DNA from: Waddliaceae bacterium
Lineage (GTDB): Bacteria > Chlamydiota > Chlamydiia > Chlamydiales > SLFE01
Length of the DNA stretch: 64,000 nt
NCBI GenBank assembly: GCA_963783885.1
Contig: CAWAPJ010000008.1
Coordinates: 64,001 to 128,000 of the forward strand
Direction: 5' to 3'
Made by a program: the position numbers and the translations under genes
The notes under the pieces: generated by a model
The model's database searches: none
What the model was told of the DNA's origin: nothing
What the model saw: only the letters and a program-made list of their open reading frames with translations
In this document: piece after piece, positions 34,676 to 43,791 of the stretch
Position numbering within the stretch: position 1 is the first letter of the stretch
How the letters are laid out: each line of letters starts with the position of its first letter

Positions 34676-34831
34676 ACCCTGATTGCTACCTAAACCTCAG
34701 CTAGAGCTTACACGAGTATTCCAGATACAACTGTAGCGTCGACGGCAAGGGTAATCCCTTGCCAAGTCGCTACACGCAGTAGATGGTGTGCTCGTGTAAG
34801 CTCTAGCTGAGGTTTAGGTAGCAATCAGGGT
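34676..34831 (+). mobile_element. 156-nt IS982-derived hairpin MITE with 5-bp target duplication CCTAG
   Basis: 41-nt perfect inverted arms matching the IS982 right end with one substitution; apex ggcaagggtaatcccttgcc identical to 42578-42597; cctag at 34671-34675 and 34832-34836. Confidence 0.93.
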
Positions 34832-41796: not shown

Positions 41797-42244
41797 ATTA
41801 TTGCTGGCATTTTTATTTTTGCAGGGATTCATCAATCTTACTGAGGCGGTTGATGCTGCGGAGATTGAAGAGTGTCTTGTGATCACTATCCCAAAGGCAG
41901 GAACGCACCTTCTAGTTAAATATTTCCAGATTCTCCTAAGACCCTGATTGCTACCTAAACTTGTTGTCAGGTTTGAAGATATCGTCGGGGATAAGGGGAA
42001 GGGGAGCCGTTTGATGCAGCTGCAAACCTTCCAAGCTATCAATGAATATCTAAATATCTCTGTCGAGGAAGATGAATTTGTCGAGATAGTCGATTCTCTG
42101 TGGGGAAAAGATGATCCCGAACAGATACATCAGCCCACTTTTTTCAAAGGTTATATAGGAAGATGGGAGGAGGAGTTTGACGATCTCGATAAAGCCATCA
42201 TGGAAGACTTTTATGGCCGGCTCATTTCCGAACTGAGATATTAA
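41786..42244 (+). pseudogene. Second sulfotransferase paralogue, disrupted and internally deleted
   Basis: N-part TIPKAGT and C-part VRFEDIVG...TFFKGYIGRW are joined across an IS end; the RDPRD region is absent. Confidence 0.85.
41941..41967 (+). mobile_element. Solo IS982 left-end remnant
   Basis: accctgattgctacctaaacttgttgt identical to 42509-42535; preceded by ctaag (CNNNG). Confidence 0.9.
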
Positions 42245-42508
42245 GCACATTTATAGAGACTCAAGCATCCTAATTGCTGACCATAGCAACCAGATTTTGC
42301 AGAGCTTCAGGGATTGCTTTTCTTAGCTTAAGCCTAATAGTAAAAAAGAGAAGAGGAGCGAGAAGGCCTTTGACCCTTAAATTGTGTTGAATCCGAACCT
42401 GCGAATCACTGATTTTTTCAAGCTGGTGTGTGAAGACCAACTTCGTTCGGGGCATTTTTGTGATGTTGACATGAGATGTTTGGGTTAAATCAGAAATGCA
42501 CCCCTTTG

Positions 42509-43548
42509 ACCCTGATTGCTACCTAAACTTGTTGTTAAAGTCTTTCGTTGGATTCAGATGCGTAGACTCGATTTGAAGGCAAGGGTAATCCCTTGCCGAT
42601 AATCGAGGCTTAGCAGATGAATTCAATGAAAGATTTTAACGACAATAGTCTCTATGATACTTCCTTAGCCAAAAAAAGGGGGCATCATGGAAACTTACGC
42701 AACAACAGTTTATGTCATCAGCGAAGAAATCCTTCGAATTTTGGGGATTAAAGACGATCCTCAATCTCAAATGTCCAACGCAGAAGTGATAACTTTTGCT
42801 ATTTTATCAGCAAAATATTTTTCTTGTAACTATAAAATGTCCAGATATTTATGTAAAAGATTACGATTATTCAGAGCTATTTTAAGCAATAGCCGGCTAA
42901 ATCGCCGAATTCATAAAATTCCTTGGATTTGTTGGAACGCCATTTTCCGTTTTTTAGCTCTATTTTTTAAGCAAATAAATAAAGATCAGGGTTTTGCTAT
43001 AGACAGCTTTCCAGTTTCATGTTGTCAGAAAAATAGAATCGATAAACGGAAGGTTTTTCTAGAACGAAGGTATTTAGGTTTCGCAGCTTCTAAAAAGCGT
43101 TACTTTTGCGGCATAAAAGTTCATATGATTGTGACGAGCGAAGGCAAGCCGGTTGAAGTTCTTTTCAAGCCAGGAGCAGTAAGCGATGTAAAGGTGCTCT
43201 GGGAAATGAAACTGGACATTCCACCAGATTCTAAACTTTATGCAGATGGTGCGTATAATTGCTTTGATTTAGAAGACATCTTGAAAGAAGAACAAATTAC
43301 ATTGCTTGCAAAACGGGGATGTAAAGCAAAGAATAGAGTCCGAACACCAATTGAAGAGAGGGAAATTAGCAGCAAGCCACAGATTGTCGAGACGACATTT
43401 AGCTGCATAACAAACCTTTTCCAAAGAACTTTTAAGTTCTGCACTGAACAAGGCTTTTTGATAAAAGTATTCTGTGCAATTCTTGCCTATAGTGTTTCGT
43501 TTTTATGCTCGTGTAAGCTCTAGCTAAGGTTTAGGTAGCAATCAGGGT
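42509..43548 (+). mobile_element. IS982-family insertion sequence, 1040 bp, 20-bp perfect terminal inverted repeats, 5-bp duplication CTTTG
   Basis: accctgattgctacctaaac (42509-42528) / gtttaggtagcaatcagggt (43529-43548); ctttg at 42504-42508 and 43549-43553. Confidence 0.93.
42687..43523 (+). CDS. IS982-family DDE transposase
   Basis: MSNAEVIT, SRLNRR, IDSFPV, GFAASKKRYFCGIKVH, LYADGAY, IVETTFS. Confidence 0.92.
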   Translation: METYATTVYVISEEILRILGIKDDPQSQMSNAEVITFAILSAKYFSCNYKMSRYLCKRLRLFRAILSNSRLNRRIHKIPWICWNAIFRFLALFFKQINKDQGFAIDSFPVSCCQKNRIDKRKVFLERRYLGFAASKKRYFCGIKVHMIVTSEGKPVEVLFKPGAVSDVKVLWEMKLDIPPDSKLYADGAYNCFDLEDILKEEQITLLAKRGCKAKNRVRTPIEEREISSKPQIVETTFSCITNLFQRTFKFCTEQGFLIKVFCAILAYSVSFLCSCKL

Positions 43549-43791
43549 CTTTGGTTTCAGACAGCCAGTCGTTCCTTTTGCAAAATCTCCATTGAGATGA
43601 CTCCACTCAAGGTCTTTATCCCACTTATGCCAGTTTGGGACATCTTTCCAAATATTCCAAACCTCATCGGGTGTGGCATTTGCTGTCATTTCAACATTGA
43701 TTTCCCAATTAAACATAATGAATCTCTTTTGATAAATGATTTTATCCATCTAGGAAGTGTTTGTCTAAAGAAATAACTGTATAAAAAATAT

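Follow-up and report, generated by a model that had tools for sequence, protein, structure and literature searches.

Why should an insertion sequence (IS) of the IS982 family, whose members are treated as minimal transposons made of 'two repeats and a gene', carry a 117-nt hairpin just inside its left end? The question is raised by a 1040-bp element at positions 42509-43548 of a 64,000-nucleotide stretch of a Waddliaceae bacterium genome (assembly GCA_963783885.1, contig CAWAPJ010000008.1, positions 64,001 to 128,000; this whole stretch is referred to as the window). A preliminary description of the window had noted the hairpin, here called the rod, between the left repeat and the transposase gene. 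The present analysis shows that the rod is one of two mirror-image subterminal hairpins which define a chlamydial IS982 subgroup together with its miniature inverted-repeat transposable elements (MITEs). The rod may act in cis as a component of the transposon end, recognised during transposition in the form of a folded single strand; our confidence in this reading, derived from comparison of sequences, falls a little short of even.

Two mirror-image rods

The left rod is composed of a 28-bp outer stem, a tandem G·A loop formed by two facing AGAT motifs, an inner stem, a GAA/GAT purine loop and a GC apex (Table 1). The RNA minimum free energy (MFE) of the 117 nt is -71.4 kcal/mol, compared with -31.1 +/- 4.0 kcal/mol for 200 shuffled sequences, none of which equalled it; the segment folds into one long rod, as the preliminary description had it. 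Other details of that description were likewise borne out by the sequence. When the 28-nt outer arms were compared by hand, four non-Watson-Crick positions were found, all of them G·T or T·G on the + strand, in agreement with the claim that the four outer-stem mismatches are G-U wobbles on that strand, and the tandem G·A mismatch (caGAtgc facing gcaGAtg) and the 8-bp apex stem are present as claimed. The whole left rod contains five G·T and no A·C oppositions.

The genome to which the window belongs (2.16 Mb in 46 contigs, GC 44.8%) was searched with the IS by blastn. Most copies contain 104 extra bases at IS position 1000. A typical example is the 1144-bp copy C14:24130-25273, where they make up the missing part of a second rod, about 115 nt long, which immediately precedes the right repeat and has the same apex as the left rod and internal loops of the same kind. 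The preliminary description had placed the rod solely in the sequence that separates the left repeat from the transposase gene; this does not hold, since most copies, and relatives too, have a mirror-image rod at their right end. Pairing of the repeats, which are present at the ends of all genome copies, gave 16 complete copies: ten of 1144-1148 bp with both rods, four of 1040-1043 bp and two of 1093-1094 bp. In each of the six short copies part of the right rod is deleted, and at least five different junctions can be told apart among them, whereas the left rod is intact in 16/16. The window copy lacks 104 bp of its right end relative to the 1144-bp copies, namely the left arm and apex of the second rod, and is a decayed, atypical copy in which most of the right rod has been lost.

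A covariance model of the rod, R1, found about 50 canonical rods in this genome, all but one of which lie within this IS or its MITEs. The remaining one, C35:5881-6000, is a divergent rod (70.6 bits) beside an IS982-type repeat of another kind, similar to that of the related element L053, and it probably marks where another, older rod-bearing element of this genome ends.

In the copy at C16:21325-22468, the inner 5' arm of the right rod is replaced by the exact complement of the 3' arm, which turns the G·A loop into a perfect duplex. This same junction was also seen as a loose end in metagenome contigs from two runs (L004:2530, X1 and X3). When contigs of four public DNA runs were compared with a full IS copy, only rod deletion and flip variants were found, and no circle junction.

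Covariation, register and strand asymmetry

All rods were read inward from their own repeats, for which those of the right end were reverse-complemented, and this orientation was set before any model was built. In this reading, rods of the two ends can be aligned from one end to the other (alignment A1, 17 rods). RNAalifold predicts 48 pairs for this alignment, 44 of which show compensatory double changes; covariation across related rods is thus in favour of the fold. The predicted partners pair in 93.1% of the cells, compared with 37-48% when the partner is slid by 1-3 columns, and 0/500 shuffles reached the observed values. Within one IS, the outer stems of the left and right rods are identical at 11-29 of 52-54 positions and the cores at 30-50 of 61-64. 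These comparisons indicate that structure, not sequence, is selected.

The columns that are near-invariant among 40 rods are unpaired or non-canonical: the AGAT of both arms, the GAAG/CGAG purine loop and the apex. The facing AGAT motifs pair as A-U, G·A, A·G and U-A. Their position is fixed relative to the tip of the element: in the 19 IS-anchored rods of other lineages that were measured, the distance between tip and first AGAT is 46-49 nt, and that between the two AGAT motifs 58-61 nt. This register is kept in lineages with a transposase identity of only about 32-37%, and the rod starts 0-2 nt past the repeat.

The two strands of the rod are not equivalent. The inward strand folds better in 17/17 rods with RNA parameters (mean -76.9 versus -59.7 kcal/mol) and in 16/17 with DNA parameters. 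Arm against arm, the 40 rods contain 137 G·T versus 64 A·C oppositions and 191 G·A versus 15 C·T oppositions, and purine-purine oppositions exceed pyrimidine-pyrimidine oppositions in 40/40 rods. The better folding of the inward strand and the excess of G·T over A·C argue against recognition of the rod as a plain duplex or as a symmetric cruciform, and the covariation also argues against duplex recognition. The preliminary description had read the one-strand bias of the left rod as selection on an RNA or ssDNA (single-stranded DNA) fold; a conserved fold selected on one strand is upheld, and the folded strand may be RNA or DNA.

MITEs that consist of a rod between two repeats

Four left-type MITEs (repeat, left rod, repeat) of 157-159 bp are present in the genome (C3:6995, C10:81367, C12:48700 and C36:18519, the last of 159 nt), together with five right-type MITEs (repeat, right rod, repeat) of 156 bp and one deleted right-type form of 115 bp. 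They share the repeats of the IS, occur in several copies and are mostly flanked by 5-bp duplications, and analogues are found in other genomes. MITEs with target duplications support the proposal that the rod is mobilised without the transposase gene. The free hairpin elements of the window had been described as 157 nt in size, equal to the sum of the left repeat, the left rod and the right repeat; a 157-nt form with this make-up exists elsewhere in the genome, whereas the element in the window has 156 nt and carries a right-end rod (Table 1). Two further elements of 156 bp (C1:93451-93606 and C5:72964-73119) are chimeras in which the left half of a left rod continues, from the apex on, as the right half of a right rod. 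They are IS-internal deletions that arose by recombination between the two palindromic apexes, and no longer form the rod.

MITEs of exactly one repeat, one rod and one repeat, with target duplications of 5 bp, recur in many lineages, in up to about 20 copies. No match to DDE_Tnp_1_3 was found in genomes G074 (20 rods, 96% complete) and G138 (nine rods, 93% complete). The most numerous MITE subfamily in G074 (L095-L104, ten copies) has its inner stem replaced by about 12 purine-purine oppositions per arm, with the outer stem, AGAT and apex kept. The orientation of MITEs relative to the nearest open reading frames (ORFs), for which crude ORFs of at least 90 amino acids were used, is unbiased (eight sense, eight antisense and 13 convergent or divergent, n=29), and selection for a function in host mRNA is therefore not apparent. 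With regard to an origin of MITEs by fold-back or by deletion, elements with differing repeats (L045, L050) were inspected, and their extra rods proved to be another IS end and an unrelated MITE.

Relatives and distribution in the Chlamydiota

A transposase fragment with 97% identity is present in a metagenome-assembled genome of a 'Waddliaceae bacterium', and relatives of the transposase are found in 54/401 genomes of a sample of the phylum. Relatives with 32-78% identical transposases have rods of 115-150 nt directly inside the repeats at both ends, in elements of about 1070-1165 bp (rod-bearing loci L031/L042, L041, L043, L044, L045, L046, L049, L050, L051, L052, L053, L058, L064, L034, L038 and L033). 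Both rods point inward in 10/10 relatives with both ends in the sequence, as they do in the copies of the present genome. The rod is thus not a one-off nested insertion, but belongs to the IS and is carried by related elements.

Eight chlamydial relatives with 29-35% identity and lengths of 934-974 bp are rod-less (L055-57, L061-63, L067, L069). No rods were found in the classical members IS982B (999 bp) and ISEfm1 (1041 bp) or in elements from Acinetobacter (992 bp) and Pseudanabaena (929 bp), for which the rod model, run with filters off, gave a best score of 13.7 bits, compared with about 100-118 bits for true rods. In a transposase tree of 23 rows, from which rows of fewer than 230 amino acids were left out, rod-bearing proteins fall into four lineages in one polytomy with two rod-less lineages. 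The rod-bearing lineages are not resolved as one clade, and the tree would fit a single origin or multiple origins.

Covariance model R1 found rods in 37/151 genomes of the phylum sample, and in none of 27 genomes of family f4 (genome size 1.0-1.2 Mb). A same-genus genome, G379, contains 16 rods, and rods are present in 2/3 same-family genomes, with none in G014. Cross-tabulation with transposase matches (E<=1e-10), under the assumption that the 150 rod-searched genomes are G001-G150 of the transposase sample, gave 13 genomes with rods and transposase, ten with a transposase (<=34% identity) and no rod, and 23 with rods and no transposase match.

The window copy and its surroundings

The features of the window copy are compiled in Table 1. 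Its ends agree with those of IS982: the repeats are 20 nt in length and start with ACCC, the duplications are 5 bp and the copies have 1040-1148 bp. For the family, the 2020 review gives, in the passages concerned, a conserved 5'-AC start of the repeat, short direct repeats and a length of 845-1282 bp (PMC7335449). The target duplications of IS copies and of most MITEs are 5 bp of the form C-N-N-N-G; across the IS and MITE sites of the genome they are often CTAAG, CTTAG or CTATG, a preference that recalls the CTAG-like targets of IS5-type elements. The solo left end, situated 568 bp upstream of the IS and preceded directly by ctaag, is a truncated relic of another insertion.

Table 1. Features of the IS982-family element and of related segments; positions refer to the window.
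Feature	Position	Strand	Basis
Right-type MITE, 156 bp, cctag duplications	34676..34831	+	RNA MFE -122.2 kcal/mol on the + strand, -115.1 kcal/mol on the other strand
Solo truncated left end (repeat and first 7 nt of rod)	41941..41967	+	Sequence comparison
Target-site duplication, left copy (ctttg, 5 bp)	42504..42508	.	Identical five bases at 43549-43553
Left terminal inverted repeat, 20 nt, IS982-type, ACCC start	42509..42528	+	Perfect inverted match at 43529-43548
Left subterminal rod hairpin, 117 nt	42529..42645	+	Fold z -10.2; covariance model R1 115.8 bits; covariation
First conserved AGAT, 5' arm	42556..42559	+	47 nt from IS tip; near-invariant column in 40 rods
Apex stem-loop, 8 bp and 4-nt loop	42578..42597	+	Fold; common to right-end rod
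Second conserved AGAT, 3' arm, facing the first	42615..42618	+	AGAT-to-AGAT spacing 58-61 nt
-10-like hexamer TATGAT, candidate transposase promoter	42653..42658	+	7 nt past rod
IS982-family DDE transposase gene, 278 amino acids	42687..43523	+	Pfam PF13612 DDE_Tnp_1_3, 1.1e-14, 55.2 bits, cut-off 27
Right-end rod remnant, 3' arm only	43509..43528	+	Comparison with C14:24130-25273 and 15 other copies
Right terminal inverted repeat	43529..43548	-	Reverse complement of left repeat

The transposase is of the IS982-type DDE class, and its tblastn matches are annotated 'IS982 family transposase'. Codon CCA (43379-43381) encodes proline four residues before the catalytic E, a position at which the other 16 aligned transposases have arginine and the other copies of this genome have the arginine codon CGA; from this substitution, the transposase of the window copy is probably defective or inactive.

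A TAnnnT hexamer 0-9 nt past the left rod, about 25-35 nt before the ATG, is present in the window copy and in 10/13 relatives listed. A generic sigma-70 scan of 42300-43700 did not call the TATGAT box and called nothing at the rod. Because the -10-like box directly follows the left rod, the rod probably lies outside the transposase mRNA, upstream of the start of transcription. It ends at 42645, 41 nt before the ATG, and the Shine-Dalgarno (SD) sequence and the ATG, at about 42675-42689, are outside it. A candidate inward promoter in the repeat, or one formed at a circle junction, was dropped, as inspection of the repeat by hand gave no convincing hexamer pair.

A separate small hairpin (42660-42689) pairs the SD region just before the transposase start. 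It also occurs in rod-bearing and rod-less leaders (L041, L042, L044, L045, L049, L055, L061, L069, L089-L092), among them those of IS982B, ISEfm1 and an Acinetobacter element, and may represent a family-wide translational control.

Possible roles of the rod

A cis-acting role of the rod as a single strand is favoured here because of the mirror symmetry of the two rods, their fixed register to the tip and their retention in gene-less MITEs. The folding strand of the rod has its 5' end at the tip, which in DDE chemistry makes it the nontransferred strand, and it is equally of the same sense as any transcript that reads into the element. In the proposed mechanism, a nick at the end would allow this nontransferred strand to be displaced by replication that starts at a flanking or target 3'-OH, as happens when transposition is of the copy-out or replicative type. 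Once displaced, the strand would fold into the rod, at which assembly or priming could then take place, in the way known from the single-strand origins of rolling-circle plasmids. MITEs would keep one rod because it would be needed for their mobilisation in trans. A further-reaching version, which we regard as speculative and rather unlikely, is that a DDE lineage has evolved an obligatory folded ssDNA signal at each end, on the strand with its 5' end at the tip, and that this signal would act as the priming or assembly site of replicative or copy-out transposition and let 157-bp MITEs be copied. An extruded cruciform that would act as an architectural bend beside the transposase-binding repeat is less supported.

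Several observations weigh against a single-strand signal of this kind. The high share of G·T oppositions, some of which recur next to AGAT, fits RNA at least as well as DNA. The right rod has been lost in 6/16 resident copies, and related rod-less IS982 elements are mobile, so that the rod is not universally required by the transposase family. The transposases of rod-bearing and rod-less elements are colinear, with no rod-specific domain or insertion, so that a module dedicated to binding the rod is not visible. AGAT is paired to ATCT as a perfect duplex in L072, in C35:5881 and in the C16 copy, and the G·A loop is therefore not indispensable for persistence. For 13/40 rods, which are not IS-anchored, the strand was picked by model score, which is circular, and only the 27 anchored rods are independent in this respect. 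Finally, the 2020 review only lists possibilities for the IS982 pathway, which it leaves undetermined (PMC7335449).

The inward polarity of the rods at both ends is also that of host transcripts reading into the element, and the rod could accordingly be an insulator that acts in RNA: read-in transcripts would fold into the rod, and either cleavage of the outer stem by RNase III or the binding of a protein to it would uncouple the translation of the transposase (at the left end) and antisense interference (at the right end) from the context of the insertion. IS10 and IS50 are known to protect themselves from read-in transcription, and RNase III needs about two helical turns, for which the 28-bp outer stem is long enough. 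Positions of the G·U type are frequent and tolerated, the rod is located upstream of the candidate -10 box and thus would occur in foreign transcripts only, and a report on Correia MITEs describes their transcripts as bound or cut by RNase III (PMC2649163). However, an insulator has no need to abut the repeat or to hold a distance of 46-49 nt from the tip, and it gives MITEs, whose orientation to ORFs is unbiased, no reason to keep exactly one rod. The rods are not followed by a U-tract, the terminator scan is empty there, and the conserved purine loops suggest specific recognition and not that of generic double-stranded RNA. Insulation, the main rival reading, is possible, though less probable than a role of the folded strand in transposition.

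It is improbable that the rods are selfish palindromic passengers, derived from MITEs that became fused to IS ends, which persist by arm conversion or fold-back synthesis and are of no use to the IS. The rods are indeed unstable, with at least five deletion junctions in six copies, arm conversion in one copy and recombination at the apex giving the 156-bp chimeras, and similar rod variants are found in metagenome contigs; moreover, the rod-bearing lineages are not resolved as one clade in the transposase tree and rod-less relatives are viable. Arm conversion, however, would erase mismatches, yet AGAT/AGAT and GAAG/CGAG persist down to about 32% transposase identity, with neither their strand nor their distance from the tip changed. 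The stems are replaced by compensatory changes instead of decaying, and both rods are directed inward in all ten relatives with both ends and in the resident copies. Least probable of all, and very unlikely in our view, is a riboregulator in the leader of the transposase mRNA that would control its stability or translation. It draws on the position of the left rod between the repeat and the start codon and on the good folding of the sense strand, and it is a narrow form of the suggestion, made in the preliminary description, that the fold regulates or takes part in transposition. The equivalent rod at the right end is on the opposite strand, and rods at both ends in mirror orientation argue against a regulator of one gene. 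In addition, both the window copy and ten of the 13 relatives listed have the -10-like hexamer downstream of the rod, and the rod ends before the ATG without including the SD, which is paired in its own hairpin.

Whichever nucleic acid is folded, a conserved, strand-specific and strongly covarying 117-nt structure at both ends, which is kept by the MITEs throughout the phylum, provides a handle on the IS982 transposition pathway. The rods imply that an intermediate in single-stranded form, whether of DNA or of RNA, is important; the exact nucleotides for mutation are named here. They also account for widespread long palindromic repeats in environmental chlamydial genomes, which break assemblies and are otherwise unannotated, and covariance model R1 could serve for their annotation.

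Comparison with known systems

A scan of 42300-43700 with Rfam 15 (E<=10) gave only matches at chance level; the best, MIR5070 (29.2 bits versus a threshold of 100), is a generic long-hairpin match. An intrinsic terminator was ruled out, since the rod is followed by tagtctctatga, without a U-tract, and a terminator scan of the same region called nothing at the rod.

The IS982 members IS982B, ISEfm1, ISPasp1-3 and ISAba825 are similar to the present element in having DDE_Tnp_1_3, TTG-containing repeats of about 20 nt that start with AC, a length of about 1 kb and short direct repeats. The classical members that were retrieved (929-1041 bp) differ from the chlamydial rod elements in being without rods. 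The passages of the 2020 review concerned describe IS982 as two repeats flanking a gene, and contain nothing on structured ends (PMC7335449). The chlamydial members from ISfinder listed there have 952-1023 bp with the coding sequence starting at 105-128 (PMC7335449), and therefore have no room for two 117-nt rods. An IS982-derived MITE from Cardinium is described, in the part of the source concerned, as 240 bp in length and without such a hairpin. No description of structured IS982 ends was found in the literature searched, an unpublished annotation in ISfinder being possible.

The Correia elements (CREE) of Neisseria and the ERIC elements of enterobacteria are similar to the MITEs in having a length of 100-160 bp, terminal repeats and a sequence that folds over its whole extent into one long hairpin, and the folding of ERIC is strand-dependent. 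The rod has a long, perfect outer stem, on which RNase III might act. The rod elements differ from both in that the parent IS is known and carries a rod at both ends, that the conserved parts are purine-purine loops and that there is no bias in orientation relative to ORFs. CREE is described, in the report cited above, as binding RNase III and IHF (PMC2649163).

The fold-back leader of the IS10/IS50 type differs from the rod. There, transcripts that enter from outside are acted on by a structure close to the left end, which pairs with the ribosome-binding site; here, the rod leaves the SD free, and it is the small separate hairpin that pairs it. The ends of IS200/IS605 elements carry imperfect hairpins just inside both ends, which are recognised on one strand as folded ssDNA. 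These elements have a Y1 HUH transposase and lack both terminal inverted repeats and target duplications, and a single strand carries the two hairpins, whereas the present elements have a DDE transposase, repeats with 5-bp duplications and rods on opposite strands.

The single-strand origins of rolling-circle replicons (ssoA, G4- and phiX-type) are imperfect palindromes of about 100-200 nt that function in one orientation only, on the displaced strand, and have conserved unpaired motifs. To our knowledge, a priming site of this kind is not known in any DDE insertion sequence. The rods have no sequence relation to these origins; their fold is strand-specific, and a priming activity would be putative. 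If the ssDNA reading is true, the rods would represent a new class of mechanism for DDE elements, one that has so far been linked with HUH elements and rolling-circle replicons.

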